Shown one piece after another: positions 7,821-33,455 of a stretch of DNA of 64,000 nucleotides. How positions within the stretch are numbered: the first letter of the stretch is position 1; the number at the start of each line of letters is the position of its first letter. The stretch spans positions 81,220,001 to 81,284,000 of the forward strand of contig OZ024741.1 in the NCBI GenBank assembly GCA_964016885.1, written 5' to 3'. A program made the position numbers and the translations under genes. A model generated the notes under the pieces. The model searched no databases. It worked only from the letters and a program-made list of their open reading frames with translations, and was not told the origin of the DNA. The DNA is from Eledone cirrhosa (Eukaryota).

Positions 7821-7994
7821 TTTGATAAATTAATAATAAAATATGTGATGTCTATGATGGAGCCACTGTGGAATTGGCAAGAACAGGTCAGTACTCTGTG
7901 GTTTGGTGGGGACAAAAGCAAATTTAGATTGAAGATATACAACTTGAAAATGTATCACAAATCTGTATTTGGAATTACAATCGCTAAAAACCAA

Positions 7995-8790: not shown

Positions 8791-10425
8791 CAATCTGCTA
8801 AGATGGAGATTTGGCTGCTATTTCTAGCAGGTTAAACAACCTCATCCTCTTGTTTACTGTATAATTTACTGTCAGAATGGATGAGATTAAGCAATATGGA
8901 TAGGATGGTGATATTCTCACTTTTGACTCAAGTAAACAATCATGATCATTCAAATTTACTTTAGGTTGTGTATATATGTATGTTAGATCATACAAAGAAG
9001 AAAAAGAAGATAGTGTATCTTGGAGGGTTTCCAAATTATAGAGGGTTGAATAACTGTTCAGTTTGGTCATGATCATCTTAAAAGATGGGAAAATGATACA
9101 GTAATAGTGAAGGAGAAAGAGGGACAGGGAAGAGGGATATGAGGAGAATGAGAGAGAAGAGTGAGAGAAAAAGAAAAGGAGAGTGGGTGAGAGAGAGAGA
9201 GATGAAAAGGAGAGAAAGTGAGGGGGGAGAGAGAGAGAGAGAATCACCACCACTAACTTCAAGTAGCAAAACAAATACCACCACAATCGCCACCACCATC
9301 ACAACTGCAATCATCACAATATCACTGCAACCACAACCACCTCAACTGGCACCATTACTACTACAACCACCACCACCACCACCACCACCTCTTCCACAGC
9401 TGATGGTAACAGGATTGTTATAATCACTATAAACACAATGATTAACAATATTGTTTGTTTGTTTAATATGTGAAAGAAAATGTACTAGGAGTCTGTCCAA
9501 ATGACTAACTGTTAAATTCTAATGTCACAGGTTTATTAACAAATCATCACCAAAAGCACAATAAAGCCAAAAAAGGTTAAAAAAAAAAATATATATATAT
9601 ATAAATGGAAATACAAAACAAAAACGAAAGGAAAACAAAGAAAAAGGTGGTGCCCCAGAATGGCCACAAATGAAAGAAGACAAACAATATAATTTTCAGC
9701 TCACATCTATGTAAATTTAACTGGCCTCCTACTAAATTTTTGACTTGTTTTAATGACTGAGGCCTTTGTTCTATCACGTGTATATGGTCATCATTTGACA
9801 TCTGTCTTGATGATACATATGATAGGCTTGGGGTCCCCTATCAATGAACCAGCCAAGAAACCTATGAGATTCAACTTCATTTATATGTATATGTATGTGC
9901 ATGTGTGTACATATGTATGTTGTTACAGCTCATACCTATGTAGGTTTAGCTGGATGGACTTCTACAAGGTAGCATCTAACAGATTTGAAGAGCAACATGA
10001 TATGAAGTGTCTTGTCTTGCTGAAGAATACAACATGCCGCTTGGTCCAGGAATCAAACACATGACTTTATGATAGTGAGTCTAACACCCAAACCACTAGG
10101 CCCCACACAGGAACAAATAAAACAAGTAAAAGAATGAACAGAATCACACAATTTTCCATCTAAAAATAAAACATTGTAGATATAGAGATATTGACTAAAA
10201 TTGCTGTTATATAGAGTATAGAGTTACAGATTTATTAACAAATGTCAGATAAAAACAAAGACAAAAGGGAAGCAAAGCAAATGGTAGTACCCCAGCATGG
10301 TCACGACCTAATGACTGAAACAAGTAAGAGAATAAAAGAAACAGAAATACATTTCCTCTTCAAAGAGAATAATAATCAGATATATTGGGAGAAACAGTGA
10401 TTATATAAAGTTGCAGATTTATTAA

Positions 10426-10665
10426 CCCTTTTGATGCCAAACTGCCTTTAACCACTCCTGGTTATATGATACAACACTGTTTTGAAGTGTTTATATCTGA
10501 CAACATTCTTGTCGTAATTTTATTTAAGAATCTTTGTTAAATTATGTTCCAAACACCAACTTAACAATGCGAAACTTAATTATATTAATTACTAAATCTC
10601 TCCAAATTCTTGATTATTTTCAAAATTATAGGCAAAGTCTCATTATAAATATAGCAATGGAAAAG
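10426..10665 (+). mobile_element. piggyBac-like MITE family B
   Basis: TTAA-CCCTTTTGAT start, GAAAAG-TTAA end; internal cctggtt.tatgatac and ttatgttccaaacacca.ctta shared with other copies. Confidence 0.75.
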
Positions 10666-11186
10666 TTAAACATTGGAAAAATGAAAAAAAGAAAACAGAA
10701 AACATAAATAAAAAACAAAACAAAAGGAAAAGCAAAGTGAAAGGCAGTGCCCCAGCATGACTGCAGCCTAATGACTGAAGCTAGTAAAAGAATAAAAAGA
10801 AACATATTCCGTCATCAAAGAGAAACCTTCCCTGTAAATAATAAATAATCAGAGATATTGGTGGAATAAACAGTGATTATATAAAGATAGCAACCCTTTA
10901 GGACATTTTCTCTTTGACTGTGTGCTTGGAATTAATCATGGTAGCTTACACTGCTGATTGCTTGTTTCTACAGAACAGGCTGGCTGATGTAATGACTTGT
11001 AATGATGACTTTGTTTGAAGAGGAGGTGAGGCAGAAGAAACAAGAAAGAAAACTATCAAGAAAGCAATGCCTGACAAAACTCTCTTAACAACGGCCTACA
11101 TCACTTTGAAATACAAATATCGGCTCATTAAGTTCTCCTACAAGACGACCATAGAGGAAAAGGTAAAAGAAATACAAAATTGACAA

Positions 11187-11435
11187 TCCTTTAGTGACCA
11201 TGTTTCTAATGAAAGACAGCCTATGATTTTTCAAATCATTTTGAAAACAATAAAACATTTGGATTGATTTAGTAATATAACTTTCTTATTATTAAGTAGG
11301 TGTTTTCAAGCATGACTTAAAGGTTCTTACATGAAATTATAATGGTAGGTGTTTAGATAAACATAAATACTTTAAAATATAGAGCTCTGTATTGTAGAAC
11401 TAGAAATGGTTTCAGGCGAATTGGAATCAAAAGGG
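11187..11435 (-). mobile_element. piggyBac-like MITE family B
   Basis: Ends atcaaaaGGG-TTAA; reverse complement of the 10426 and 31890 copies. Confidence 0.75.
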
Positions 11436-11879
11436 TTAACAATGTCCAATATCTCTTTGAAACACAAATATCAGCTGATTAAGTTCTGCAGCAGCCTGAA
11501 ACTACTGCAAGCTGAAGAGAGAACAGAGCAAAAGATAGGAGAAATATGAAATACATTTTAAAGAAACAGAAGGATGAGAGAATAAGGGAAAAGAAAAGAG
11601 ACAAAAGGAAATTTAATAGCTGATACATACAGATAAATTAAAAAGTTTGCCTTACAATCATGTGGAACTGAGTTTGATATCATACAGTATGGAATCTTAA
11701 GCAATAATTTTTTACCATAGACTCAGGTTAACCCAAACATTCTTAGTGAAACTGACTCAATGGAAATCGTGTGAAAGCCTATCAGATTGTAATTGTTATT
11801 GGGTGGCTAATTTTAACCCTTTCACTGTCACATTTCTAATGAAAGACACTGCCTATGATTTTCAAATAATTTGAAAATA

Positions 11880-13250
11880 CAACACCACACAGCGTCACAG
11901 CCCAGGAAATTTACTGATGTACCACCTTGGTGAAGAGGCAACAGAATGCAGATGCAGTACAGACTGTAGCAACAGAGCAACAATCTTTAGACAAGGCAAA
12001 AAAAAATTAGGACTTGGCAACATCAGATACAAAGCCAAAATCATTCATACCAACATCGAAGACCACCACAAATGATGGACCTAGGGTGGCCACTACTGAC
12101 ACCTACCCAAATGTCATGTCAGTGGTCACGGCTGTCACCGCAAATGTCACACCAGTTGTACTGATAAATGTCAAAGGTCTGGTAAAATGTACCAACATCA
12201 GTATAATCTATCTGAGAGACCTAGCCACAAGAAATCAAGCAATATGCTGGGCACTAACTGAAACACACCTCACATCTAGCATAGTAGATATGAAACTCAT
12301 GGCGGAGTTGCTTTGTACATCCATGATGATATCACACCCTTAGTACTGTTGACACATTCCAACTCATTCTGTGACATACTAATAGTACATATAAACTAAC
12401 TCACAAATAAATTAGTAATGTGTCACATCAGCCACTAAACACTCTTAGTCATTAGGACAAGTCTCAGGAAGATGGAAGTACTACTAACCAAACTAGATCA
12501 GTCTCAACATATTACTGCTGGGAGATTTTAAACTCTCCACGTTTACAGGGGGCACTGCTGCTTGGGGTGGCCCTCTCAGACATGCTCTCTGTAGTACAGA
12601 CCACCTCCCTTACTATCTAAGCTGATGACATGAAAGCAGCATAGGCAATTAAGCTCTAATGCCACTCTCTTTCAATAAGATTTGGATGCCGTATACAAAT
12701 GAGCTGAGAACAACAATATGCAAACACAAGGCTACACTGGACCAGGAGGAACTGAAATGCCTAAGTCGAAATTAAAACGAGACTTGGGTATTGACATGAG
12801 CAATGATGCATCATTTCATGCACACATCAGCAAAATGGCACCAATGTGCAGATGACTGGCTGGTTGGATTCTGAGGACTTTCAGGACAAGAGACTGGGGA
12901 ACTATGTTGATCCTCTGGAGGATATTTGTCCTCAGCCAACAGGATACTGCTTTTATATATGGCCACCGTACAGTGTCAAACTAACTGCAGAACTTGAAGC
13001 AATCCAATGAAGCTAAATCAAGAAGGTTGCCTCAACGGAGAAGATAAGTTACTGGGAAAGGCTGAAAGAACTAAAGTTCTACTCCATGGAATTAAGATGG
13101 GAGAGATATGCAGTGATATACATATGGAAGATCCTGGAATGACTAGCATCAAACATTGGCATTGAGAGCTGGATCAACCCTTGAAAAGGATGACACTGTA
13201 TCATGCCAAAGGTCTTATCCTAAAGACTAGATACAGTAATATTCTGTGGT
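11880..13250 (+). mobile_element. Internally deleted, decayed CR1-type LINE (APE endonuclease start + RT C-terminus)
   Basis: INVKGL...ALTETHL and LLGDF (APE motifs); then RDLGIDMSNDASFHAHISKM...AGWILRTFRTR...LEAIQ...YWERLKELKFYSMELRWERY..IYIWKIL with stops. Confidence 0.85.
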
Positions 13251-13254
13251 TCAT

Positions 13255-13670
13255 GTTTTTGTGTGTGATGTGTATTTGTGCATATCTTATGCATGTCTTT
13301 ATATGAGTGGAGGCATCTTTATCTGTATATGTGTGTGTGTGAGCATATCTTTATCTGTATATGTGTATATATTTATCTGTATATGTGCATATATTTATCT
13401 GTATATCTGCATATCTTAATATGTATGCATGTCTTTATATACGAGTTGGTGTATATCTATATATTTATGTGTGTGTCTATCTATATATGCATCCATGTCT
13501 TTATATATGATTTGGTGTATATTCATATCTATATATTTATGTGTGTCCTATCTATACATGTATCCATGGCTTTATATATATTTTGGTGTATATCCATATC
13601 TATATATTATGTATGCGTCTATCTATATATGTATCCATGTCTTTATATGAGTGAGTGCATATCTTAATGT
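13255..13670. repeat. Degenerate (TA/TG) low-complexity satellite
   Basis: Direct reading; explains the MCVYI-type ORFs. Confidence 0.9.
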
Positions 13671-14629
13671 GCGCATATGCAAGCATTACCTACTACAGTC
13701 AATGGCTGAGAAAAGTATCTAGTAATATTACCTTGAATGAATGAAAATGAGTACCCCACCCCCAAAAAAACAGTAAACAAAAAATAAATGAAAACTTAAA
13801 TAAACAAAAAAATAAATGAAAACTTAGTATTTAGAAGTGATTTTTGTTGAATTTTTGGATTATCTCAGATTTTTGAGGGGTGATGATGTTATTTTAATCT
13901 TTTCATACAAATTGTTATATCAAACTTTCTTCTAACTTTTTTTTTTATTTTTATCATATACTCATTTCCATTTTATTTTTATCCATTTTATTAATAAAAA
14001 AACATCTTCTGAATAACATCTATCTATATTTGAAAAATGGAGTAAAAAACAGCAGACAAGTATGCATCTACCTAGCCACCATAACACAGTAAGCACAGAT
14101 ATACATAAACATATATATATATATACATACATACATATATATATATATATACACAGACACACACATACATACATAGTAAAAGGCTGCGTTTTATACAATC
14201 AATTTAAGTTTCTCTGAAAGATCATGCAGTCATGTTCTTGGAGATCTTTTCCAAAAATAATATTCCTTAGGCAAGAATCCACATGCCAAACGAGGAGGAC
14301 AGAACATTTTGCAAACACTGATGAAATGCAGTTATAAGATAAAAAGAGAAAACAAAAACTCCAAAACAAAACAACAAAAAAGAAATTGTGAGATGATCAG
14401 GATTAGCTTTTCATGCTCCTGAGAGAGTTGCTGTCGAATTTAAATTAAATGAAGATATGCATGCACACGTCGAGTGGTAGGTGAGCTGTATCGCACACAA
14501 GTGGTATAAGTAGAATGGCGGTATTTAAAACTGACTCAAGTAGCTTATCCTCTGATTGGCAAGTTAATAAACAGCCAGTTTGTTAAGTTTAATAATAGGA
14601 GTTGGTTTATGCTAATTAAAAAGGTAAAT

Positions 14630-14908
14630 TTGTAGAGATCTTAGAATGTCAGCTAAAATGCTTTGTGGTATTTGTTCAGCTCTTTGCGTTCTGAGTTCAA
14701 ATCACGGTGTGGTCAATTTTGCTTTTCATACTTTTAACCTTTTAGCATTCACATTACTCTATATATACTATTGTATTTTGGTAGTAAACACTTTATCTTA
14801 CATAATTATCTCATATAATATCGAATCTATGAGATTTTGATGTTATTTATCTTGAGAACAATACCTTAACATCAGTATGAGTGGCTAGTTACAGCCGATT
14901 TGAACAAG
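14630..14908 (+). mobile_element. SINE 5' half interrupted at TTAA (14734-14737) by a truncated MITE family A
   Basis: SINE ...ctgagttcaaatcacggtgtggtcaattttgcttttcatac breaks into ccttttagcattcacattactct, homologous to 15529 and 19185. Confidence 0.75.
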
Positions 14909-15528
14909 TTTAGATGGATCCTTTATCAGTTTCAACAATGAGCATTACATTATTCACATCAATCAACTGAATATATGACTCATTAACCTTTTTGTTAATA
15001 CACTTCTTCAGTTTCAATTAATTTTGAAAATAATCAAGAATTTAGTGTGATCAATAATTTCATTATTTTGATGGTGAGTTGCACATAACCATTTTGCTAC
15101 GATATTTCTAAGGAAATACACTTTATGTTCTTAATTGATGAAGAATTTTGAGGGAATTACCGAAATTGATTATTTCATCATTAAAATAGAATTTGTAACA
15201 ACGTATTTTTTATATATATAAAATTATATTGGAAAGTCTTAATTAGAAAAAGAACCCTTTAATATGGGTGGGTTTGCTTCATAGAACTGATGTTGGTTTT
15301 GAAAAGGGCTAAAATAATCTGTAAAAGACTGAATATTCCACAAGCTTGTACCCATAATGTAATTCAAGAGCCAAATCAGCATAACACAAGATGTGACACG
15401 GTTTTACATTTGAATTACAGGTACAATACATCATACAGGCCCCCACTTAGCTTTTGTCTACCTAATTACACTCACAAAGTTTAGCTCAACCCAAGGCTAC
15501 GGTAAAGAAATTCATGAAAGACTGTTAA

Positions 15529-15750
15529 CCCTTTAGCATTTATATTACTCTACATATACACTATTGTATTTTTCTGGTAAGGCTTTATCTTACATAATTA
15601 TCTCACAAAAAATCGAATCTATGAGATTTTGATGCTATCTATTTTGAGAACGATACATTAACGTCAGTATGAGCAGCCAGTTATTGATGGCTTGAACAGA
15701 AAGAGGTGAGAAAATTCTGGCTGGATACGGCCTGTTTAAATGCTAAAGTG
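15529..15750 (+). mobile_element. piggyBac-like MITE family A (~220 bp)
   Basis: TTAA|CCCTTTAGCATTT...AAATGCTAAAGTG|TTAA; termini related to the 1.25-kb piggyBac. Confidence 0.88.
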
Positions 15751-17242
15751 TTAAAAGACATCTTGGCAGTGTCTTCTCGATTAGACTTGGGTTAAAAAAT
15801 TTGATGTTCTGAGTACAAATATTGTAAATTTGAGCAGCAAAATTTTGATTTGCATGGCACCAATAAAGTGACTGTGTGGCCACACATCTGCACATCTTAG
15901 AAGGAACGTTGGATAGATGGAAACAGAATGGATGTACAGCAGATGGGCTGTGCCTAAAATTTATATAAAAGCTCCACCTTCTCACACTGTATAATCTACT
16001 GAAGAATTACATGAAAAGTAATCCAACAAGTAAGGTTGTTAATTTGACTAAGCAACTGTTCTCAGTGGAAGAATCAATCATTTATTGAAACCGTTGTGGC
16101 ATCCATTCATATATATTATATATACACAAAAGGGTGTCTCTGACTGGATGCCTTCCTAATGCTCCCCCGCCCCACAATATATACATTATTCATAAACATA
16201 CATATATAATGTCCATCACACATCTGCTTGGAAGAACGCACATGTGATGATGGTTATAATAATGACACACACACACAAAGGAAGAAGGGGAAAAGAGGGA
16301 GGTTCAGAGAAGGAGAGATAGCAGAAAGGGAGAGCAGGAAAGATAGAAAGGGAGAGCAAGGGAAGGAGAATGGTGAGAGAGAGATTGTGTGTGTGTGCAT
16401 TTAAAATCCTGTTTTTTATTTCCCCCAGTGTAAATTAACCAAATGTTCCATAGTATTTCCACTGACCAAATATCCAATATCCCTCTCTCTTTATCTATCG
16501 CTCTCTCCATGTAAATAAAAAAAAAAATAGAGAAGGGACATTAAAGTAAATATTCAACCCAACAGATTAGATCTATAGCAATGTTACAGAATCCATAGCC
16601 ACAATACCAAATATACCACTTCTAAACTTCTACTGAGAACACGCATGCTTAAATGCACAAACACACAATTTCTAATGCAACCACCTTACTCACACAGATA
16701 GAAAAAGATAACGACACAGTATTCCATAAGCAACTTTACAATGTAAGTACAAACATATTTCTTACACACACACACACACACATATATGCAAAGAAAGACA
16801 GATAAAGTCATTTTACACGCACACACTTTATTTCAATTCCTTTTCTTGTTTATAGTCTTCAGATTATTTTTGTTTGTCTCATATATACATATATATATAC
16901 ACACTCCCATGGGGTCACATATATACACATAAATATATGTAAACATATACACACACCCAGCATTACAGACACTAATACCAACAAGCATATCAGTACATAC
17001 AACACATTTCTCTAAACTGTGATAGCCATGCCTTCCCAACTGTAATAAAAGTTACATTAAAGCAGCTTTTTATTACAGGTCAGAATACATTAAGATCCTT
17101 GGTTGTGATGTCAACCAGTTGGTTTTTGCCTATTTTGGTTCAATGCTCCCTTATCAGAGTCATCTTTGCCTAGGAATCATTGATTTCTAATATACAGCAG
17201 ATGGTCACAAATATTGAGGGAAGGGCTATGATAAGTGATTAA

Positions 17243-17805
17243 CCCTTTTGATACCAAATCATTTGAAACCACCCCTGATTCTATGATATAAAACTGTTTA
17301 TATTCATTTAAAAGCTTCACATCATAATTTTATGTAAGAATCTTTCTTAGTGGATTGGTGGATCAAAATGCATTATAGCATTTAGTTATGGCACTTTATA
17401 TTCTGAGGTCAACTTTGCCTTTCATCCTTTTGAAGTTGATAAAATAAAATACTGGTAAAGTATTGGTGTCAATTTAATTGATTTTCTCCTCCCCAAAAAT
17501 TACTGGCCTTGCGTTCTAAGTTAGAAACAATTTATGCTCCAAATGCCAGTTTAAGTCATTCATTACTATATTTCTTATAAGAGTCACTGCCTATTATTTT
17601 CAAATCATTCTGAAAATAATCAAGAATTTGAAGAGATTTAGTAATACAACTAACTTTCTCATTATTACAGTACTTTCTGGAACATAAATATTTCCATGTA
17701 AAATTATAATGGAAGATTTTTAGATAAATACAGTCATTTTAAAAATAAACAGCTTGTTTAACATAGAACCAGGGGCATTTTGAGGTGGTTTGGTCTAAAA
17801 AGATT
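17243..17805. mobile_element. MITE family B with nested SINE (~17350-17530), joined to an inverted MITE B copy
   Basis: TTAA-CCCTTTTGATACC start; SINE core ggtcaactttgcctttcatcctt; opposite-orientation MITE B from ~17575. Confidence 0.7.
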
Positions 17806-18821
17806 TGACGCATTCTCAGGGAGATTCAATATGACAGAGTGTGACAAGGCTGCATCGACCTGAGGCTATGATAAAAGAGACTTGCTAACAATGTCACACA
17901 ATGGGATCAAACTCAGAACCTTGTGATAGCCAAGAGAACATCTGGTCATCTATACAGGCCAATTAACATTAATGCACACAATCTAATCTGTAAAAAGCAA
18001 AACTAATTTGGTCATGTGGTGGTGTTTATGACAGCAGTGAAAGTGGTGTCGATGGTAGTGGTAGTTTTAGTGGCTACAAAAACACATATCACATATGCTC
18101 ACACAGAAAGATAGATATACACACACATACATTTATATACATACATATACGCATACATATGTACATGCATTTATCCATACATAAACATACACACACAGAC
18201 ATACATGTATATACATATAGAAATACATACATACATATATATATATATGCACACAGACACACACATATATATATAAACTGACACAGATGGATGTATATCC
18301 ATCTGTACATACACCTACATATACATATATACAAACACACACGCAGCTATAGATACATACACAAGTACCTACATTTATACATTCATGCACACAGTTTGCA
18401 TACAAAATTTGTGGTAGACAAACAATGAAATATGTAAACAGACTGGCCATTGTGATGATGATGATGATAGCAATGGTGATAATGATGGTAATAGTGGTGG
18501 TGATGAATATAGCGATGATTTTGATAATGATGATGATGGTGGTGATGATAATAATAACAGGTGACATCACTGCAGACCATTTCATATGTGAACTGAAATG
18601 GATGGGTGAGTGGATGCAAGGAGGTGGTGTCAGGGTAGAAAATAGAGGGGGATGGTTCATTAACTTTCTATAGTTTTTTTTTTTGTTATATTGATGAGGA
18701 TGGTATAGGTAGTCATGGTAACAATAATAGTGGTGGTGATGAAGAGATAGGAGAAGTAGATGTAGTGGTGATAGTGTAAGTAGTTATTGCAGTGGTAGTG
18801 GTGTTGAGGATGCTGTGGGTA

Positions 18822-18991
18822 GTGGTGGTGGTGGAAGGGAGAGGTGGTGGTGGTGGAAGGGAGAGGTGGTGATGGTGGAAGGGAAAGGTGGTGATGGTGG
18901 AAGGGAGAGGTGGTGATGGTGGAAGGGAGAGGTGGTGATGGTGGAAGGGAGAGGTGGTGATGGTGGAAGGGAGAGGTGGTGATGGTGGAAG
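18822..18991. repeat. 22-bp purine-rich minisatellite (GGAAGGGAGAGGTGGTGATGGT), ~7.5 copies
   Basis: ggaag recurs at 18833, 18855, 18877 and onward. Confidence 0.95.
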
Positions 18992-19184
18992 TGATATGCA
19001 CTGAAAGGGTGGATTAATATTCCGAATCTCATCTTAATTAGCTGATAGAATAAATAAGTAGGAACAGTGAGTTAGTAGCAAGTAAAATAAAAGTGGTGGA
19101 GATGGTGGTGGCATTGGTGGTGGTGACGACGCTCAGAACATCTGATGGAGTTGTAAGGGTGCTGTCATATCGCGGCCATTTTAA

Positions 19185-19391
19185 CCCTTTAGCATTTACA
19201 TTACTCTATATTTACTCTCGTATTTTCATGGTAAAGGCTTTACCTCACATAATATTGAAGCTACGAGATTTTGATGCTATTTATTTTGAGAAGAATATCT
19301 TAACATCAGTATGAGTGGCCAGTTACAACTGGTTTGAACAGAAAGAGGTGAGAGAATACTGGCCGGATACAGCCGGTTTAATGCCAAAAGG
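19185..19391 (+). mobile_element. piggyBac-like MITE family A (~207 bp)
   Basis: TTAA|CCCTTTAGCATTTA...TAATGCCAAAAGG|TTAA; homologous to 15529-15750. Confidence 0.88.
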
Positions 19392-19619
19392 TTAAACCTC
19401 TATGTTTGAGCAGAGTCAGAGAAAGATGACTCTGAGAGGAAGATGAGTATGAGGAGAAAGAGGATTACTGACTCTTGTACTGGACTGGTATTTTATTGAT
19501 CCTTCAAAGGAAAAGATGGCCTCTGGAATTTGAACTTAGAGCACAGAAAGCTGCAACAAATACTACAAAGCATTCTATCATAAAATTCTAATGACTCTGC
19601 TACTGAAGCATATACACAG

Positions 19620-19659
<40 letters not shown>

Positions 19660-19949
19660 GTGTATATATATATATATACACTGGCAGACTGGGGAAAACT
19701 ACATTAACCATTCACAAATAATTTTTTTCTTCCTCCATGTTTTAACCAGTAGAAATAACCTGTTCAGAATTTAATCTTCAGAACTTTCACTAGGGGGTTT
19801 TACTCTACCAATAGTTTATCAACCAATGAAAAGGTGACATCCAAAGTTGAACCCCTCATGATCTGAACTGAAAACTTAAACTTTTCATTCCCAAACTATG
19901 TCTATAATTTTTTAAATAACCAAGCATTTTGAGAATTCAGTAATACAAA

Positions 19950-20754
19950 TACTGTATATACTCGAATACAAGCCAAGAAACATGTGACAAAAAAATAAAA
20001 TAAAATAAAAAAAATCCATGGTAAAATGGGAGAGGGTGGTGGTGGCTTATATTTGAGGTCAGTATTTTGCCAATTTTCACCAACTTCAAATTCTATATAG
20101 CAATGTTTTTCTAATTTACATTGTTGTTATTTATGCATTCCCTTGAAAATATTTGAACATTCCAAAACATAAATATTCCATACACATGCATACACACACA
20201 TACATACATGTTTTTCTCTGACAATACTTTTTCTTTCAATCGTATGTTAGATTGAAATGTTACTTATTTTATTTTATTGCTCTCTTTCCCTTCTCGCTCT
20301 CTCTTTTTTTCGCTCAGCCTCTCATCTCTCTTCCTCAGCCTCTCCTCTCATCTCATCTCACTTGCTGTCTCTCCCTCCCTCTTCTACTCTAGGAATCCCT
20401 CTACAAAGTTCTCCATTTGATCTCTTGCTTTCAAAGTACTCCTAGCATGTGAGTGACTGAAAGTAAACAAATATTCCAGAAACTTGTTGAAACTCAATGT
20501 AATGAAAACTCATTATGTAATGGAGTTGTGAAACAAAAATATACTCTAACCATTAACCCATTTTAAACATCAAAATATTAAAATTTATAAATATATTTTA
20601 TACTCATGAGAAAACCTCACAATCTAAACAAAATGTGTTGTTGATTAGCTGCTTCAGCTTATAAATAGGGTTTGAAGTTTTGCCCATTTGTCAGACATAA
20701 AATAGGGGGTATCGCATTTTATTCAGATTCGCTTATATTCGAGTATATACAGTA
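19950..20754. mobile_element. Tc1/mariner-superfamily (Tc2/pogo-type) non-autonomous element nested in a MITE B copy
   Basis: Perfect 19-bp inverted repeat TACTGTATATACTCGAATA (incl. TA) at both ends; flanks rejoin as MITE B sequence (cagtaatacaaa-TA-agtttgtcattattaag). Confidence 0.88.
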
Positions 20755-20873
20755 AGTTTGTCATTATTAAGTTGGTGTTTTAGAGCATAATGTAATGAAG
20801 ATTCTTACATAAAATTTAAGTTTTGTAGTGTAGAACCAGGAGTAGTTTCAGGTAGTTTGGTAAATGTTAAACA

Positions 20874-21095
20874 ACATACCTTGGCAATATTTCCATGTCA
20901 CATTTATATAAATAGTTTCTTTCTTACAGAAATATGCTGAAATCATTTTATATCTTCAAACCTTCTTGTTTTAGTAAAACCATTTTGGAGGAAATACAAA
21001 AAAACACCAAAACATGGTATAACTTTCCAATTCTGAATCTGTGTAACTTACCTAGAAGAAAAAAAAAAAAGAAAAAGAAAAGCAATGTCAAATTT
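20874..21095 (-). other. Candidate recursive splice site (junction 21052/21051) with 172-nt cryptic exon and downstream donor
   Basis: Minus strand reads TTTGAC..ttttctttttc(t)n cttctAG|GTAAGT; second donor AAG|GTATGT at 20880/20879; cryptic exon has stops in all frames. Confidence 0.65.
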
Positions 21096-21298
21096 TATAA
21101 TAAACTTGTGTGAATATTTAAGAAATCCATAACTGAACTGTAATTACTAAAAAGAAATATAAAAGATTATATATTTTCAAAAGTGTGTGGCCTAGTGGTT
21201 AGGGGGACTGGACGATATGTAATTTACATAAAAAAAAAAAATCTGCTGTAACTCTACATTCAATACATTATCCCTCTGTAAATAGAGACAGACATAGT

Positions 21299-21343
21299 TA
21301 TCTTCTGATGAGGATACAAAAGTCTGTGAAATGCATAAAGGTA
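21299..21343 (+). ncRNA. Minimal type I hammerhead ribozyme motif (Penelope-type), weak stem II
   Basis: tatctt-CTGATGA-ggatac aaaa gtctgt-GAAA-tgca-TA-aaggta: 6-bp stem I, palindromic ATGCAT stem III. Confidence 0.55.
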
Positions 21344-21754
21344 TTCTGTTATGTTTTCTTGAATACACACACAGACATACACACATGCAGGTGGTTTTCC
21401 AGCATGTCAACTGTACAATGACTAAAACCAATAATACATATATAGACATTTACTTCATGATTAGCTTTATTTTTACAAATGTATTTGGAATCCGATGGTC
21501 TTGTCTACTAGATGCTTTGTTTATTGTTGGCTTTGTTTCCTGACTGTATTATGTGCATATAGGGCATTCAACGATTGCTTGCATTTGTTCTGGGCGTGTC
21601 TTCATTTGGATTTGTGTCTGAGGGTCCTACTTGCTTGATTATATATATATATATATAGTGTATATAAGTGTAGAGTGTATGTATGTGTATTTAGGGTAGT
21701 TATCGATGGTGAATAGACTGGTTGGAGCAATAACGGTCTTGTTTATATATATAT

Positions 21755-22294
21755 TATAAAAAAGTACAGGGCGATCAAAATAAACGGTAGCTACGGAGTA
21801 GGCAGACCCAGAAAAACCTGGGATGACTTGATAAAATCCGACCTCACACACTTACACCTCTCCAAGACAATGTCACTGGACTGAGATCGTTGGCGCTACG
21901 TAGTTATACAGAAGACCCGCCTTGCCTAAGTACAAAGCGAAACCTACAGTCAGTAGGCACCTCTTAACCAAAATACACTCCCGTCCCACTAACCCCACCC
22001 CCCACCACCATCTACACCACCCCTTTCGATGTAAAGCTATGTTGGTACCACAACATCTGGTCCTAAATAAATGGTGTCACGACAAAAAAAAACACAGTCC
22101 ATGCTGTAATGTGGACGTGTAGGTAACACGGTAAAAACCTCCCAGTCCACACTGTAAACGTGGTTGGTGTTAGGAAGGGCATCCAGCCGTAGAAAACCTG
22201 CCAGACAGGCCTGAGCAAGACAACCAATCTTGCCTCAAGTGGGACAATTCCCGTCCAGACCCATGCTAGCGTGGAAGATGGATGTTAAACGATG

Positions 22295-22300
<6 letters not shown>
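21755..22300 (+). mobile_element. Short 5'-truncated RTE copy
   Basis: Homologous to 3910-4460 (GVGRPRKTWD..., 3' UTR, (GAT)n tail). Confidence 0.92.
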
Positions 22301-22389
<89 letters not shown>

Positions 22390-22451
22390 CACACACACAC
22401 ACACACAGATGGAGAGCTAGACACAAACATAATACATACATACACTCACAC

Positions 22452-22773
22452 AGAAAGAAGGTACCAAATTTAACACAGGAAAGATCAACAATATGAAGAA
22501 AAACTTGCCAGACAGACAATACCACCACCATCACTATTACCAACACTAATACAATTGCTACCATCTTCACCTCCACATAAGGAATGATGATGGTGGGATG
22601 GAGGTAAAACAAGAAAGAAGGTACCAAATTTAACACAGGAAAGATCAACAATATGAAGAAAAACTTGCCAGACAGACAATACCACCACCATCACTATTAC
22701 CAACACTAATACAATTGCTACCATCTTCACCTCCACATAAGGAATGATGATGGTGGGATGGAGGTAAAACAAG
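22452..22773. repeat. Apparently perfect 160-bp tandem duplication
   Basis: agaaagaaggtaccaaatt...gaggtaaaacaag starts at 22452 and again at 22612. Confidence 0.95.
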
Positions 22774-23279
22774 ATGGTGGACAAGTTTATCAAAACCAAA
22801 GAGTGATGACAATGCTGATGAAGATAATCTCTAACAGATTCCATTTGATGAAAGAGTTTAAAAATAGTCTCTGAGGAGCATTGTGCTGGATAGGAGTGGA
22901 GGTCAGGAGGAGGTAAGGGTAGAGTGTGTAATGGAGGCAGATATCGCTAATAGGATATAGAATCAATATGGGATGTTATACAAACTAATTCACAGGTTGC
23001 ATATTCTACTGTTTTATATATATCAGCAGAAAATACACATCGTAAAACAGACAGCTGCATCTCTACCTTGTCAGCCACCTTGCTGGCATGCAATTTCATG
23101 CTTTAAGGTGGGACACACACACAAATATATATATAAAGCATGTATGCTGATGCCCATCTTTTTCAGTTCAGTGGGCTTATACGTCCCATTATTATTAGAT
23201 TATTTTATTTGGTCATAATTATGGCAAGATAAAATTCAATTTATTTATATGTGTGTGAGTGTGTGTATATATATACATA

Positions 23280-23809
23280 TCTTTCATTTTAAAGAGTTCC
23301 TAGATAATCCTTTCAACATAATCTCTGTCTGTCTTTTCCTTATGCATTCTCAAAGGGTTCGACCAAATCATATCAAATTTTACCAGGTAATATATTAGAC
23401 CCTGGAATTAACATGTAATTTTTATTTTCATTTGGATTAAAATAATATAACATTGTTTAATCCAAATAATCTAAAATAATCTACTATAGACAACTAAGTA
23501 AACTGATATTTTATAACACAACGACGGCGTCGTCACATTTTGTATATGAGTGCGTATGTGTCTGTGAGTGTGTTTGTGTGTTTGTTACGTACGTTACGCC
23601 TTACTAAGTTACACACACACACACACACACACACATCTTCATGTAAATATTTAATCAAATACACAGAGAATTGAACACACACACACATCTACACATATGT
23701 GTAGACTGACAAGTTAATGTGTGTGAGTATACATACATTTCTGTGATGACTGACATAATGAAATGCAGGTATATATATATATGTATATCATTGTCATGAT
23801 ATATACATG

Positions 23810-23856
<47 letters not shown>

Positions 23857-24421
23857 ATATTATGCTGGTACGACAAAACATCCAGTCCGCACTGTAAAGT
23901 GGTTGTGTAGGTGTCACAACAAAAAGCACCCGGCACAAAACTGTAAATGTGATTTTAGGAAGGGCATCCAGCCAGAAACACTGCTATATGAGTGAGACAT
24001 GGTCACCCGACCCAACTTGCCTCTGAATGGGACAAACTCGTCAAACCCAGGCTAGCATGGAAGATAGACGTTAATCAAAGATGATGATGATGATATATAT
24101 ACAAGTATATCTATGCACATATATATATATGCTTTTCCCATGGTCAACTCTATGTTGGTCACTCACAAGTTGGAAGCAGCAACAATTTATTCATTTGCAC
24201 ACCAACAAAAAATTACACAATGAATATTGTTTACCCTGAAGTGCTTCAAGATTGACAGATTTTCATTTCTAAATCCTATTATAATTACAATTTGGATATA
24301 TTTTTATAAAATATAGATATTTTAAAATAATTATGAGGAAAAAAATATATCTTCATATTTATTGTTTACTAATCTGAATAAGAACAGCAGTAACCCGGGT
24401 AACACCGGGTCATACAGCTTG
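23280..24421 (+). mobile_element. Probable non-autonomous Helitron-like element, with nested RTE-tail element (~23860-24095)
   Basis: 3' hairpin acccgg-gtaaca-ccgggt followed by cagCTTG|T (CTAG variant); possible A|TC start and ctgtctgtc..atgcattc..ccaaatc block near the 5' end. Confidence 0.5.
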
Positions 24422-25375
24422 TTATATATAAGAAACTTTTGTTACATTACAGATGCCATCTTAATCATGAAGCATTTAATAATTTTAGTAAATCCCCCCC
24501 ACATTCTTTCTTAATCAATCAGAATACAGTGTATTCTATAGTAATACAGTAATGAAAGGGTTAAATATTAGGTGAACACAAGTGATATTTGAATTCTGAA
24601 AGGAACGGGATACTGCTAGAAACTGTTAAATGTAGCTTCACACAAAATCATGTAACAGGATAATCCAACTCTGTAAAAATAAAAATGGGATGGTCATAGC
24701 TGGAATGTTTTTTTTTAATCCTAGATCTGTTAGACCAGTGCTGATTTTGAGCCTAAATACCATCTCACCATGATAATAATTGTGATGGTGATGTAGGTGA
24801 TGATCAGAATATTGGTCATGATGATGATAAAATTGACGCCGGTGAAGATGATAATGATTATGTAAGAAACAATCATCAACATTACCACAAAATCTCTACA
24901 GGTCAGGAACCAGAAAGGTTCCTTTGTTAGTTCAATATTCTTTATAGTGGTAGTATAACCTGCTGGAGGTAGTGTATTGGCAGAGCTGTTAGAATGTTAA
25001 ATAGAATGCTTTGCAGTATTTGTTCTGGCTCGTTCTGCTCTGAGAACAATTTACACCTTTCACCCTTTTGAGATCAATGAAAATAAAGTACTAGTTCAGT
25101 ACTTTGGTCGATTCTTCTATATTTCTTTCTCACTTACTTACTCTCTCCTTCTCGGAAGAAATTGGCTATGTTCAGAGCAGGAGAGAGAATGTGCATCACC
25201 AGGTTTAAAGTGACCAAGACATATCATATATCATGATGGTGCCCCTATGATTCCATCCAGAATTACAGATACATACATACATACATATATGACATGCAAG
25301 AAAAAGCAGCCAAATTGTGCACTTAACTTCTTCACCACTCTTTTAGAAATAAAGTAAATAAAAGTGATGCACTAG

Positions 25376-25781
25376 ACTAAAGCTTTCCAAAATGTCAATA
25401 TAACCAGCACACATTTAAAAAATATAATTCTTCATGACACAATAATTAAACTTTGTTGGCAACTTGTAATTAATGAAACTAATAAATAAACAACTGAATA
25501 TTGTATCACATGACATAACCCATGTGTCTAATTCGACACCAAATTGACGTTAATTGATCAATTTTGATTAATTCTATGACAAACCTAGAGATCAGTGGCA
25601 ACACACTAAAATGTCATGACACACCTGGAGAATATTGGCAACACACTAAAGATCATGGTCAACACACTAAAATGTCACAACACATCTAGAGATGCTTGAT
25701 GACATACTAGAATGTCACAATACACCTAGGGATGATTAGTAACACACTAAAGTGTCATGATGCATAGTTCAGAAACATATG
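25376..25781. mobile_element. Decayed hAT-like non-autonomous element with subterminal repeats
   Basis: Repeated caacacactaaa.tgtca.gacacac units ending gtgtcatgatgcatagttcagaaaca, resembling hAT/Charlie-type ends. Confidence 0.45.
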
Positions 25782-26905
25782 CATTAGACAATAAACTCTG
25801 GCCTTTAGAATAGGTACAGCATATTGCTACATGTCTTATAAGAAGCCACATGGATAATGTCCAACTATCTGAAAAAGAAAAAAGACATGGAAAATATAGC
25901 TATGAAACCAGTGGTGGTGATGGTAGTGGTATACCCATGCTTCAAAACGTCTTGTCCAATCCATCCAGCTATCATGGAAAAATAGCAAAGGAATTGATTA
26001 TAAGATCTGACCAAGAAAACTAGTTTTCATTGGTCTTTCCATTGCTGATTCTATCTGCCGGCCACAATTCCTGGCAGATGCTTCGGTGCTTTTCAAGAGA
26101 CATGAGGCAGGATTTGAATACCCAGTGGTGAAGCAGATACCAACAATATTGCCAAACCACCACCTCTGGATTAAATCTCTATCAACCCTGAAAGGATGAA
26201 AGGCAAAGTCGGCCTGGATGGGATTTGAACACAATTCACAGTGAGCTGAAACAAATACATTTCATTGTAAGAGACTAGGCTCAAACAAAGGTTAATTTTA
26301 CAGCTTGGAAAAGCAGCCATAAAACTAATGATGGTGATGGTTGAAGTGAAGAGTGGTGGTAGGAACACATATGACCTGAATAAAAAACTGACCTGAGGCT
26401 AAATAGGTACTTCAACAGCAGTGTAAACAATATGTATTTAGATTATTTATTCCACCCACAACATAACCACTACCACCACAACTGCTTCTACCACCACTAC
26501 CACCTACCAAAAACCAAATTAATATGTCAGGCACATTCTTTTCAATCACCTAACAACTACATCTCAAGAGAGGGGGGTGGGGGTAGATGGGGGGGGGGGG
26601 GGTACTGAGGAAGGGAGTTATTTTTCTTTCATAGAGTAATTACTATTTTTATCTTCTTTCTAATTACTGCTTTTAAAGTAAAGCACTGAATCAGTAAATA
26701 AATAGAGAAACAAGTAAATTAAAAAAAATAAAAATAAAAACACAATTTGGATACTATGACCACTTCTAGATAGATAGAACCATTATATCAAGAACTCTTC
26801 AACTATGAGGAGGAAAACAAGATTTAATGGTAAAGAGAAAAAAACAAATGCACACTAACGAACAAATGTATGTTTACAATGAATTCTTCAAATATTTTCA
26901 TCATT

Positions 26906-26949
<44 letters not shown>

Positions 26950-27291
26950 AGTACACATTCACCAATATTAATATATATATATATATTAAATAAAAAGATG
27001 TGAAAATAACAAAAATCACTTTATAATACATTGTATGTGTATATACACACAAAGTGTAAATGGGAAATCTAAACCATTATCATTTTGCTTAAGAACATTT
27101 GATGAGAGAAATAGGATGGCACTTTTGAATAACTGTAATATGTGTGTGTGTGTGTGTGTGTGTAACAAGTGGGAGTGGATAGTTATGTGAATTCAAACAT
27201 TAATATCACTGTCATATCACATACACACTCACACACATCTTTTATATCACACACACTTTCTAACGTTTTATCTCTCTCTAACTGTATCTTA

Positions 27292-27336
<45 letters not shown>

Positions 27337-27846
27337 TATTAAAGAAAAATGCTTCTTCAACAGCATGCTTTACATGTCTTTACACACACACACTTTTATG
27401 TAAGTATTTCTACCTACCAATACACACATATATATATAGAGAGAGAGAGATAGATAGATATATATACACATACACACACACATATATATATATATAGATA
27501 TACACACACATATATAGATATATACACACACACATATATATAGATACACACACATATATATATACATACACATATATAGATACAAACACACACACACAGA
27601 CATATATATATATATATATATACACATGAAAATCCTTTCATCTAGTATTTCACCACAGATCAATAACTATTATTGATTGATAGAGGAGAGAGATAGGTAT
27701 AGGACAATTGATTTGGACATTTCTTTAAAAATGTAAACAGCACATTTCTAATAGACAATAGGATATCAATAAAGACTGATTGAGAACATACAACATGCAG
27801 CTGAATGTTGGTGGTTGGGGAAGAAATGGAGTCATATAGATTTAAG

Positions 27847-27893
<47 letters not shown>

Positions 27894-27976
27894 GAGAGAG
27901 AGAGAGAGTGAGTGAGAGAGTGCAATGAATTACTTGTCAAGAAATATGTCATGGTGTGTGTGTGTATGTATGTATA

Positions 27977-28025
<49 letters not shown>

Positions 28026-28633
28026 ATATGTATGTATGTATATATTTAGTTAGATAGACGGAATACTTAAGAAATGTGTGTCAAAGAGTATGTGTGTCAA
28101 AGAGTATGTCTGTGTGTGTACACCATTATCATTATTTAACATCTTATATAAATACTAGAAATGTGTCTAGGGGGTATACATATATATGTGTATATATGTA
28201 TATGTGTTGTGTTGAACATCTATCAGTTCTGTTGAGTGTTTCAGCTAATTCATGAAATTAACATGTAAGTGGCTGAGAATTCCACAGATAACTGTATCTT
28301 TAATGTAGTTCTCAGGGAGATTCGGTGTGACACAGTGTGTAACATGGCTGGCCCTTTGAATTATGGGTATAAATTGTTTTTTTCATTTTTCAGTTGAGGG
28401 TACTGGAGCCACGTGAAATAAGGTGTCTTGCTCAAGGGCACAACACCACCACTGTGAATCAAGCTCACACTCTTGTAATAATCAACTGAGCTTTCTAACC
28501 ATTAATCCATGCAAGTTTCTCCAAAATAGTTGAATAAACACAAACTTACATTCACTCCACACACATTTTTTACTGTTTCTTCCTCTTCTTACCCTTGTCT
28601 ATCTTTCTATTTCTTCTTTTAACTCTCATTCTA

Positions 28634-28669
28634 TCTTCTGATGAAAGACATTAGTCTGAAATGTTAAGA
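28634..28669 (+). ncRNA. Minimal hammerhead motif within a short Penelope-type repeat (~28590-28735)
   Basis: tctt-CTGATGA-a-agac atta gtct-GAAA-tgtt-aaga; stem III probably ACGT with CpG decay. Confidence 0.55.
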
Positions 28670-28744
28670 CTCTTCTTTTTCTACTATATAAAGCATTAAG
28701 CTAATATATATCTTCATTGTACTGTATCGTTTCTCTGAGGTAAC

Positions 28745-29258
28745 ATCACAAGATGCACAACCCAATCCACTCTGTTAAGTGATCATGCTGGTGGCAAAAG
28801 AGGCTCCTTCTATAGTGGTTGTGTTGGTGACATGAAAAAAAATGACCCCAGTCCACCCTGTAAGGTGGTTGTGCTGGGGACATTAGAAAGCACCCAGTTT
28901 ACCCTGTAAGGTGATCAAGCTGGTGATGTATGAAAAAAGCACCCAGTCCACCATGTAGAGTGATTGTACTGGTGAAAAGAGAAAAAAGCAACCAGTCCCC
29001 CTGTAAGGTGGTTGTGCTGGTGACACAACAAAATATGCTTAATCCACCCTGTTGGTGTCATGATCAAAAACACCCAGTCCACACTAATGTGGTTGGCATT
29101 AGAAAAGACATCCAAACGTTGAAACAAAGCCAAAATACAGATCTGCATGAGGAAGATATGGTTACCTGACCTACCTATCTTATGATGTTATAACATGACA
29201 ACCCATCTAATCCATGTAAGAGTGGAAACAGACATTAAATAACAATGACGATGGTGAT
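28745..29258 (+). mobile_element. RTE-tail element with expanded ~45-bp internal repeat array
   Basis: About 7 units of cacccagtccaccctgtaaggtggttgtgctggtgaca...aaaaag, then the ttggcattagaaaagacatcca...atgacgatg tail; minus-strand relative at ~57460-57880. Confidence 0.75.
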
Positions 29259-29261
29259 ATA

Positions 29262-29475
29262 TAAGAACAGGATGCAAAAGGTTCAGAGAGCTGTTACTTC
29301 TGCTGGCAACAAAGACCTTCTCTTTAAGACTGAAGGACAGATTTTATGATGCTTGTATTCAAAGTGCTACATGACAGCAAGACTTGGGGCTTGAGTGCAG
29401 AAGATCTGTGCTGATTAAAAAGAAGTATGATATGTACATTCTGCTGTTGTGTAATATTAGTGTGCATGAATGACA
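29262..29475 (+). pseudogene. Decayed RTE ORF fragment
   Basis: RTGCKRFRELLLLLATKTFSLRLKDRFYDACIQS, homologous to RTGWKKFRELIPLLAAKGFSLKMKGRLYDACI. Confidence 0.85.
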
Positions 29476-30554
29476 CCACAAGTGGACTATATTTGTATGT
29501 TTATAATGTATACAGATTTGGTTATTGGAGTAGTAGCAGTACCAACAGTAGTGGTAATAGTAGCAGTAATAGTAAAGATAATAGTAGTTATAGCTGTTGT
29601 GACAGTATTTTAATTTCTATTATATGCATAAAACATTTGATCTTGTTGCTGGTGCAGGTTGCTGTAGCTTATAACAGTTAATGTAGTTGCTGCAGTTGTT
29701 GCAAATGTAGTTATTGTAACAGCTGATGTCTCTACCCCCACTCCCTCACCAACACCAACACAACCACCACCACCATATAACAATATATAACAAGTTTAAC
29801 TGTCAAAAATGAGATGAAATTCTTTAGGAAGAGATGGGAATGAAGAAGAAAAAGCTTAATGTAAATTGGTAAAGTCATCCATCAATTCCATAGAAAACAA
29901 CAGTAACAGTAATACAAGCAGCAACTGCAGCAGAATCAGCAACAACATCAAAAGCAACAGCAACAATATCAACAACAAACAAGAGCAGCAGCAATGACAA
30001 TGACAACATCAACAACAACAGTAGTAACAACAGTAGTAACAGCAGTTGTCATAGCATTGAAGGTTTCTTAATTTAAAAATTTCCAACTGCAATTTTTACA
30101 AGATAACTGTATTGTATTGTAAGAAAATTACTTAACAATGAGATTGATTCAGGGGAGGGGTGGGACGAGAGGAGTAATGGAGGAGAGGTTGATGATGATA
30201 ATGGCAGTGGTTAAGGTGGAGACTATTTTTCTTCCAGCAAGCATGATGCCTGGAGATGAAGGTAGAGAAGAAATAGGGATGGTGACAGCAAATGAAAATT
30301 ATTAAAATAAGAACAACAACAATAATAATGAGAATAATTATAATAACATTAACGATGACAAGTAATCACTAAACAACAGAAACAACAGAAACAACAGTAA
30401 TAATTATAACAACAGCAGCAGCAACAATAATAACAATAATGGTTTCTAGCATTTTTTTAGAGAGAAGGGTAAACAACCTCTCTAGTGCTGGTGCCATAAT
30501 AAAGTAGTGCTGGTACCACAATAAAATACTGTAAAATGGTGGTGCTGGAGTTAT

Positions 30555-30945
30555 GATAAAATGCACTCACAACTCTCTATAAAGTAGCATTACTGGAGCC
30601 ACGATAAAATGCACTCACAACTCTCTATAAAGTAGCATTACTGGAGCCACGATAAAATGCATCCACTATTCTCTATAAAGTAGCATTACTGGAACCAGGA
30701 TAAAATGCATCCACTATTCTCTATAAAGTAGCATTACTGGAACCAGAATAAAATGCATCCACTATTCTCTATAAAGTAGCATTACTGGAACCAGGATAAA
30801 ATGCATCCACTATTCTCTATAAAGTAGCATTACTGGAACCAGGATAAAATGCATCCACTATTCTCTATAAAGTAGCATTACTGGAACCAGGATAAAATGC
30901 ATCCACTATTCTCTATAAAGTAGTATTACTGGAGCCAGGATAAAA
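30555..30945 (+). repeat. 48-bp minisatellite (~8 units) inside an RTE-tail element (~30480-31119)
   Basis: ctctataaagtagcattactgg recurs every 48 bp from 30575 to 30911; followed by gtggttggtgttaggaagggcatccagcc...(gat)n. Confidence 0.93.
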
Positions 30946-31889
30946 GTCACCCACTGCACAATGAAATGATGCACCGAGGACACTGTGTAAAGTGGTTGGT
31001 GTTAGGAAGGGCATCCAGCCATGGAAACCATGCCAAAATGAGCAGTCTAGTCTTGCACCATGACAGCCTCTCCAACACACCCAGTTATAGCAAGCGAATG
31101 CAAAATGATGATGATGATATTGACAAGCCATCATAGCAACAACAATAATTATAACAATATTAACAACATTGAGGATGACAATCACAAGAAAAACAAAAAT
31201 AAGTTATAACAACAACGATATTAATAAAATTAACGATGACAAGTGATCATAAAGCAACAACAAAAACACCATATAAATTTAAAAAGACAAAATATATCTC
31301 ATCCTACTCACCCCTACCCTGTAATGAAAACTGTCAAAGCCAAACGTAATTTAAAAACAACAAAACGTATCAAGACGTGTCTTTATTAAATCCATAACAC
31401 ACATTAATCTTCTTAAATCCGTTAATCTGTGACACTTTTATCAACAACAGCAAATGTTTTAAAAAGGCATAAAAGGTACAAAGTCGTTCGTTTTCAGTTT
31501 TATGAATAAAAATTATATAACGGTGAGAGAGTGAGGAGGGAGGGATGGAGGGAAATGAAATCAGGGATTATAGCAATAAAAACTAAACAAAAACAAATCT
31601 AAAATAGTGGAGGATGTGTGGGTGGCTAATGGAGGTAAAATGCATTTGCAGTGCATCAAACATGCATGCACATGAACCCGCTGAAGAAATTGGAGGTGGG
31701 GTTGAAAAAAGATAAAACAAAATATATATTAACTACAACACTAGATGGGGAATGTATCAGAGCTGGGTCGCTAGATCGGGCTGTAAGTAGCAGATTATGC
31801 TAATTTCTTGAGTTGCACTCTACTATCATTTATTTATATTTTTTTCGTAAGGTGTTTTTCTTTTTTAATTTGAACTATTTGATATTTAA

Positions 31890-32206
31890 CCCTCTTGATA
31901 CCAAAGCGCATGAAACCACTCCTGGTTCTATGATACAAAATGGTTTATTTTAAAGTGTTTACAAATATCTCAGAAAAATTTCAACATAATTTTAAGTAAG
32001 AATATTTGTTGTTTCAACTTAAATGTTTACATTTATCTTAAAATCCTTACATCATAATTTTATGTAAGAATTTATGTTCCAAACATGAACTTGATAACAA
32101 TAAAGTTAGTTGTATTATGAAAATCCTTTTAAATTCTTAAAAAAATTTCTTAATTATTTGAAATTCAAAGGCAGTGTCTTTCATTAGAAACATAACAACA
32201 GAAGGG
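31890..32206 (+). mobile_element. piggyBac-like MITE family B
   Basis: TTAA|CCCTCTTGATACC...CAGAAGGG|TTGA. Confidence 0.8.
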
Positions 32207-32349
32207 TTGAAATGTTAATTTTAAAGGTAATTTATAACTGACCTTATATCACTTCATCCCAATCTTCTCTAGTATGTCACCTTTGAGCACCTTGCACCTT
32301 TTTATACAGCTGTCATCCTCCATGTGCCTCACATGTCAATACCACTGCT

Positions 32350-32540
32350 CTCCAACAAGTCGAGCCCCTAGCAGTGGAGACTTCTGGTGTCCTTGGCCCT
32401 AGGGCTACCTCCCTACTTACCACCATAAGCGCTAAGCTGGCTAGCCGCAGGTGTGAGCCTAGTGAGATGGAATGGCTCTTCCAGCTCATCTCCCTACCCA
32501 GCCTCTGGGGAAATGTCTTCTCCATTCTGTTTGCTGGGGC
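32350..32540 (+). mobile_element. CRE-like non-LTR retrotransposon C-terminal (restriction-like endonuclease) fragment
   Basis: EPLAVETSGVLGPRA..LL..I..KLA.....E.EWLFQLISL....GN..SIL matches the P.A.ET.G..G...QR.S.A.QRGN motif of RLE-bearing CRE elements. Confidence 0.7.
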
Positions 32541-33177: not shown

Positions 33178-33455
33178 TATTACTCTTTTGCCGGTTTCAG
33201 TTATTACACTGTGGCACCACTTTGAAGGAATTTAGTCAATTATATTGACCCCAGTATCCTTTTACTGATTTTAGGGATTAGACTGTGACAATATAGGGGC
33301 ATCATTTTGAAGGGATTTAGTCAATGATATCAATGCCAGTATCCTTTTACTAATTTCAGTCATTAGATTGTGGCCATGCTGAAGCACTGCCTTTATTCAT
33401 TTAGTCAGTCATATCAACCACAATACATACTTTTTCAAGTCTGGTACATATTTTA
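33178..33455 (-). repeat. Three tandem partial SINE 3' ends
   Basis: Repeated tttac..tttcag..attaga.tgtg...gcac....ttgaagg.atttagtcaat.atat; same tail in + orientation at ~10290-10340 and ~10740-10800. Confidence 0.7.

Follow-up and report, generated by a model that had tools for sequence, protein, structure and literature searches.

The window analyzed here, a 64,000-nucleotide stretch of the Eledone cirrhosa genome (contig C2, positions 81220001-81284000), was examined together with 400 kb on each side, for a region of 864 kb in total. Exon prediction combined with a motif search located a minus-strand class I alpha-1,2-mannosidase around the window, and a tblastn search with the Argonauta protein resolved the gene into 11 coding exons on that strand. 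The catalytic exons are mostly 80 to 90% identical to mannosidase IA of Argonauta hians, and the same protein is the best of eight matches to the first coding exon (63%). Pfam recognizes Glyco_hydro_47 (GH47) in the second coding exon and no family in the first, which encodes the stem region. By these sequence similarities, we identify the host gene as the Golgi alpha-1,2-mannosidase IA, with Argonauta as the nearest named relative. The host is thus a Golgi glycosidase, a glycosylation enzyme, and the neuronal-gene setting invoked in the initial annotation does not apply to it.

The first two coding exons are contiguous in two related proteins but lie 290,530 nt apart in E. cirrhosa, with an intron in phase 0 between them. 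In window-relative coordinates, the upstream coding exon ends at 175389 and the next begins at −115142, and this first coding intron, on the minus strand, contains the whole window (1..64000). Its sense strand is T-rich. Roughly 55% of the 864 kb consists of sequence that recurs in the same region, and the window also holds a perfect 160-nt tandem duplication (22452-22774; two copies, 100%) and a 48-nt minisatellite (30555-30945; eight copies, 97%). Broken reverse-transcriptase fragments, which from their motifs we take to be LINE-like, occur on the plus strand at 2531-4083, 34004-34942, and 62690-63208 and on the minus strand at 40905-41291, 61516-61935, and 63313-63609.

The feature of interest spans 20874..21095 on the sense (minus) strand, in the interior of the long intron and away from the coding exon boundaries. 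A branch-point-like word of the YTRAY type, TTTGAC (21087..21092), lies ≈37 nt before the end of the AG and would serve as the branch point. It is followed by an uninterrupted 28-nt pyrimidine tract (21055..21082) with TT at positions −5/−6, within a zone of 51 nt upstream of the acceptor that holds no other AG. The tract leads into a TAG 3′ splice site (21052..21054), the candidate ratchet point, which directly abuts the donor half GTAAGT (21046..21051), so that a strong acceptor and a donor meet as AG|GT at 21052/21051. The branch-point-like word, the tract, the TAG, and the GTAAGT had been described in the initial annotation and are present at 21092-21046, as is the second donor that it had placed 172 nt downstream, AAG|GTATGT (GTATGT at 20874..20879, GT at 20879), which is the sole donor scoring at least 1.5 within 400 nt. 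The piece between the two donors (20880..21051) is a candidate cryptic RS-exon of 172 nt; it is single-copy, and its length is of the form 3n+1.

The region of the motif is itself single-copy. Among 40 genome matches, the self match alone covers the motif, and the other 39 correspond to a repeat fragment at ≈20800-20877, outside of it. We considered whether the tract might be the poly(A) tail of a retroposon or otherwise be borne by a repeat, and this origin is ruled out by the single-copy character of the region and by the lack of an adjoining repeated element next to the tract. A search of Rfam with positions 19000-23000 of the window returned no matches. The DNA contigs X1-X3 cover 20904-21075 at a depth of 6 to 9; because X1-X3 behave like genomic DNA, and X4 comes from RAD-seq, this depth is uninformative with respect to expression.

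Donor strengths were compared with an approximate weight matrix that was not trained on the E. cirrhosa genome. By this measure, the donor that would be rebuilt by joining the upstream exon end to GTAAGT scores 8.1, whereas the gene's own donor reaches 6.1 and the downstream one 5.7. A donor as strong as the GTATGT is found by the same matrix within 200 nt of a random intron point in about 4% of cases, and the chance of meeting one is put at about 4 to 6% overall; we regard the 172-nt piece as a fair RS-exon candidate and its end at this donor as plausible from the sequence. The distance of 172 nt differs from the genome-wide mode of 40 to 80 nt described below. The host reading frame through the piece reaches a stop at codon 27, and retention of the piece would thus be predicted to truncate the enzyme before its catalytic domain.

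The initial annotation had called this piece a poison exon on account of its stops in all three frames. The stops are there, but they are uninformative, as 71% of 5000 random 172-nt pieces from the same intron have them as well, and the label is therefore an over-reading; fly cryptic RS-exons, moreover, are said to be out of frame as a rule and to be skipped in every case (PMC8605326). The piece might nevertheless be a regulated cassette exon, bounded by the AG at 21052 and the donor at 20879, whose occasional inclusion would direct the mRNA to decay, with the GTAAGT being secondary. A strong acceptor, a single good donor of a strength seldom met by chance, a length of 3n+1, and a stop early in the host frame would all suit such an exon. 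The stronger rebuilt donor speaks against it, and the other four sites introduced below share with this one the layout of an acceptor followed by GTAAG and not a strong exon end. Taken together, we consider a regulated cassette exon improbable as the main explanation, with the proviso that it is compatible with recursion and that both could coexist.

The noted site is one of five such sites in the mannosidase intron. In transcript order, these are a minus-strand acceptor with GTAAG at window-relative 131750; a second site at 62005..62045, in which a T-rich tract leads to a CAG ending at 62011 and then to GTAAGA (62010-62005), 41 kb upstream of 21052 in the transcript and with weak donors alone behind it; the noted site at 21052 with GTAAGT; and two further minus-strand acceptors with GTAAG at −46449 and −82026. 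The plus strand of the 64-kb window contains no such acceptor-donor site. Across the 864 kb, acceptors having at least 16 pyrimidines in 20 positions and followed by GTAAG number five on the minus strand and zero on the plus strand, and all five are in the mannosidase intron. Looser cuts give six minus and one plus (15/20) or seven minus and two plus (14/20). Within the intron, GTAAG stands behind 5 of the 159 strong sense acceptors, for which 0.22 would be expected, and behind none of the 123 antisense ones. If no tract is demanded, YAG followed by GTAAG occurs 15 times on each strand, and the strand asymmetry thus comes from the tract and the donor occurring together. All five sites have TT at −5/−6 and AG-free zones of 38 to 70 nt; the TT is also found in six of nine ordinary acceptors examined in the mannosidase gene. 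Two of the five sites have none but weak donors downstream.

The sites divide the intron into pieces of 43.6, 69.7, 41.0, 67.5, 35.6, and 33.1 kb. A shortest piece as long as 33 kb was reached in 0.3% of random placements (P 0.003), in a test that was devised post hoc. The local significance of the series is lowered by the fact that one module accounts, through copying, for three of the five sites and that another was picked by the earlier reader; the two independent further origins that are left, set against 0.22 expected, give a P of about 0.02 by hand calculation. The site at 21052 might also owe its form to chance, as a slipped run of T that came by accident to stand before AGGTAAGT in AT-rich intron sequence and is ignored by the spliceosome. 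The T-richness of the sense strand would make such a juxtaposition easier, and the control patterns described below yield a background of 21 to 33 for 120 strict matches. On the other side, the site is on the sense strand of an intron of 290 kb, and without it the evenly spaced series there would have a gap of 108 kb; it comes with a branch-point word, the TT, and an AG-free zone, and it does not form the tail of a repeat. Such a coincidence seems to us improbable, to about the same degree as the cassette exon.

We conclude that the site at 21052 is likely a ratchet point of the fly type, one of five co-oriented motifs that split the 290.5-kb first coding intron, and that removal of the intron likely takes six steps, as judged from the genomic sequence. 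The proposal of the initial annotation, a site of recursive splicing in a giant cephalopod intron on the minus strand, accordingly stands as a candidate, now backed by the host gene, the measured intron, four co-oriented sites, and a genome-wide signature. In the first step, while the polymerase is still within the intron, the branch point, tract, and AG would be read as a 3′ splice site, probably aided by the donor 172 nt downstream via exon definition. The upstream exon end would then be joined to 21051, which would remove the 41 kb that separate it from the preceding site. This join would rebuild a donor, GAG|GTAAGT, that is stronger than the downstream one, and we propose that splicing for this reason proceeds to the next site, 67.5 kb on, with the cryptic exon being skipped. 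Six such rounds would produce the normal exon-exon junction, and the mRNA would retain nothing of the site. Vertebrate recursive sites are reportedly accompanied by RS-exons as well, with exon definition through the cryptic exon (the work of Sibley in 2015).

We searched the genome for a strict pattern of twelve pyrimidines, any nucleotide, YAG, and GTAAGT. This pattern has 120 genome matches, compared with 30 for its reversed form. Exchanging the AG for AA leaves 33 matches (reversed, 64), and exchanging the G at donor position +5 for C (GTAACT) leaves 21 (reversed, 53). With controls at 21 to 33 against 120, about a fifth to a quarter of the strict matches may be noise. A looser pattern has 209 matches and its GTAACT version 46 (reversed, 137), but the reversed control of the looser pattern is about as frequent as the pattern itself (197) and thus fails to separate the motif. 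The strictest pattern, of 23 letters, has two matches in 3.0 Gb, one of which is the 21052 site, with one match for the reversed control. The excess over controls under two patterns amounts to about 90 to 160 sites in the E. cirrhosa genome.

Among the first 100 of the 120 matches, 19 neighbor pairs lie less than 1 Mb apart, against 5.3 expected from approximate contig sizes, and 18 of the 19 are on one strand (15 of 16 after removal of three copied pairs), with the fraction of same-strand pairs being 6 of 9 at 1 to 5 Mb and 28 of 56 beyond 5 Mb. Two further 200-kb regions contain two and three sites, all on the predicted strand, of which just one is new. On contig C4, four strict matches on the minus strand are spread over 1.2 Mb (227.98-229.16 Mb), probably within a very long gene.

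The flanks of the matches were compared for 67 sites (the first 70 of the 120 matches less three duplicates, the 21052 site included) and 45 controls (all 21 GTAACT matches and 30 of the 33 AA matches, with six dropped). TT at −5/−6 is present in 58 of 67 sites versus 21 of 45 controls, a branch-point word in 42 versus 13, and a donor scoring at least 4 at 40 to 80 nt downstream in 13 versus 2. AG-free zones have a median of 56 nt in the sites versus 47 and 36 nt in the controls, and reach at least 30 nt in 53 sites versus 34 controls. The two sets do not differ in upstream pyrimidine content (P 0.33), nor clearly in the presence of a donor scoring at least 5 anywhere in the 400 nt examined (19 of 67 versus 9 of 45).

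A comparison with flies is possible at this very locus. The Drosophila gene FBgn0259170, which is alpha-Man-I (PMC7933348), belongs to the same gene family, with 60% identity over the catalytic part between Argonauta and fly. In PMC6110457, it has a high-confidence ratchet point at X:10198454, with 64 + 57 + 30 + 1 = 152 junction reads, in a 44-kb intron (X:10173224-10217598, dm3), and this site is flagged there as also being in Duff's list ('in_duff'). A variant that falls within the 44-kb intron is assigned, for the isoforms of 643 and 667 residues, to intron 1 or 2, if the variant table uses dm3 as we assume. Drosophila isoforms with differing N termini have their last 461 residues exactly in common in nine of nine comparisons, and this shared part begins at the residue that marks the end of the cephalopod intron. 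Isoform pairs of a hoverfly and of Anopheles albimanus diverge at the same residue, and three culicine pairs break 1 to 4 residues earlier, through either chance shared residues or a shifted border. As the isoforms converge at the residue of the cephalopod intron's 3′ end, the 44-kb fly intron is likely the same intron as the 290-kb cephalopod one, the identity of the 3′ ends being deduced from isoform proteins. The two differ in that the fly intron has two sites in 44 kb, one of high and one of medium confidence, in contrast to five motifs in 290 kb, and in that the fly site has junction reads, whereas the E. cirrhosa sites are known from DNA.

The fly comparison also bears on whether AG|GTAAGT at 21052 could be a donor alone, marking where an alternative first exon within the intron ends. 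In dipterans, three alternative anchor-and-stem first exons are spliced to a single catalytic exon at this same intron junction, and the orthologs of fly and mosquito thus set a precedent for N-terminal exons in this position; AG|GTAAGT, for its part, is an ordinary donor consensus. In the phase that would be required, however, the last codon before the donor is a stop. We recognized no alternative first exon of the dipteran type in the cephalopod intron, nor any convincing frame with a start, an anchor, and a donor beyond the true exon, the other candidates being repeats or simple sequence. A non-coding version would presumably give an enzyme without its membrane anchor. An alternative first exon is accordingly the least probable of the explanations that we considered, and a ratchet point remains the preferred one.

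Recursive splicing is known from flies and vertebrates. Like the Drosophila ratchet points described in 10.1101/006163, PMC6110457, and PMC8605326, the E. cirrhosa sites juxtapose acceptor and donor behind a strong tract, with several sites per long intron; Drosophila luna has five ratchet points in 108 kb, compared with the five motifs in 290 kb of the mannosidase gene. The TT at −5/−6, present in 99.5% of fly sites (10.1101/006163), is matched by the E. cirrhosa set. Short out-of-frame cryptic exons with a weaker downstream donor are described in flies, at roughly 50 nt (PMC8605326), and are paralleled for the E. cirrhosa set as a whole by the donor mode of 40 to 80 nt, unlike the 172 nt at the 21052 site. 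The dimensions also differ in that pieces of 33 to 70 kb stand against a fly mean of 18 kb and maximum of 64 kb, and the 290-kb intron is over twice as long as the longest fly case (133 kb) in the same three sources.

In vertebrates, recursive sites are similarly found in very long introns, with a median of 329 kb for human saw-tooth sites, but only 9 to 16 firm intronic sites are reported for humans in PMC8605326 and PMC6110456. The excess of ≈90 to 160 in E. cirrhosa is nearer to the situation in flies. In the 12 of 15 data files covered, human MAN1A2 and MAN1C1 appear in a 36,870-row 'putative' table only and are absent from the candidate and saw-tooth tables. Our literature search, which extended mainly to open-access papers, returned no report of recursive splicing for molluscs or octopus. 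Those mollusc papers that name recursive splicing do so in passing and are unrelated by title and abstract, and papers on cephalopods or evolution have at most one mention.

If the interpretation is correct, a fly-like genome-wide signature in a mollusc would extend recursive splicing to the third major branch of the Bilateria and to genomes whose introns are very long. Recursive splicing is found in 6% of fly introns over 11 kb (Duff et al., 10.1101/006163), and long introns may gain recursive sites independently. With a matching intron in fly and cephalopod, the question of whether recursion is ancestral or is re-invented whenever introns grow becomes testable at one locus.

Three of the five intron sites, those at 131750, −46449, and −82026, are diverged copies of one module and are 65 to 76% alike over ≈170 to 500 nt; the 21052 site is not a copy of any of the others. 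Identity among the three is highest at the junction, reaching 0.90 at −10..+9, and beyond +130 it falls to 0.2 to 0.4 except for one window of 0.6. Each of the three is preceded by a copy of a common repeat. A genome search with one module recovered just two of the three known copies and is therefore a weak test of absence elsewhere. Among the strict matches elsewhere in the genome, 3 of the 19 neighbor pairs are sharp-edged same-strand copies, versus 4 of 3981 non-neighbor pairs. The copied neighbor pairs, on contigs C12, C2, and C3, extend over 200, 558, and 155 nt with 96, 94, and 89% identity and are 52 to 330 kb apart, and C4:108188561 and 108228116 are also among the copied neighboring sites. 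One control pair is duplicated as well, and a looser pair proves to be a duplication of at least 1.9 kb. As a source of the copied modules, ordinary local duplication was considered and set aside, since non-repeat intron tiles with a partner more than 20 kb away show no same-strand excess (29 of 1155 on the same strand, ≈5 of which are the modules, versus 39 of 1155 on the opposite strand).

These short copied modules suggest how new ratchet points are born, and the passages on fly ratchet points consulted in 10.1101/006163, PMC6110457, and PMC8605326 make no mention of short whole-site copies within an intron. A joint reading, which we put forward tentatively and hold to be doubtful as a whole, is that recursive splicing is widespread in cephalopods, with hundreds of sites; that stepwise splicing of the mannosidase IA intron dates back to the ancestor that flies and molluscs share; and that new ratchet points arose as introns swelled, via same-strand copies of 150 to 560 nt that carry the complete module (branch point, tract, AG|GT, and cryptic exon), land tens to hundreds of kilobases away in the same intron, and are kept by selection, which would constitute a birth mechanism for ratchet points.

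A repeat family with its own weaker acceptor and GTAAGT motif is also present, at window-relative 455396 and −137009. These two repeats were left out of the site count on account of their weaker tracts, with 14 to 15 pyrimidines in 20 positions. One copy of the motif-bearing repeat is found on the sense strand, 670 nt before a mannosidase exon.
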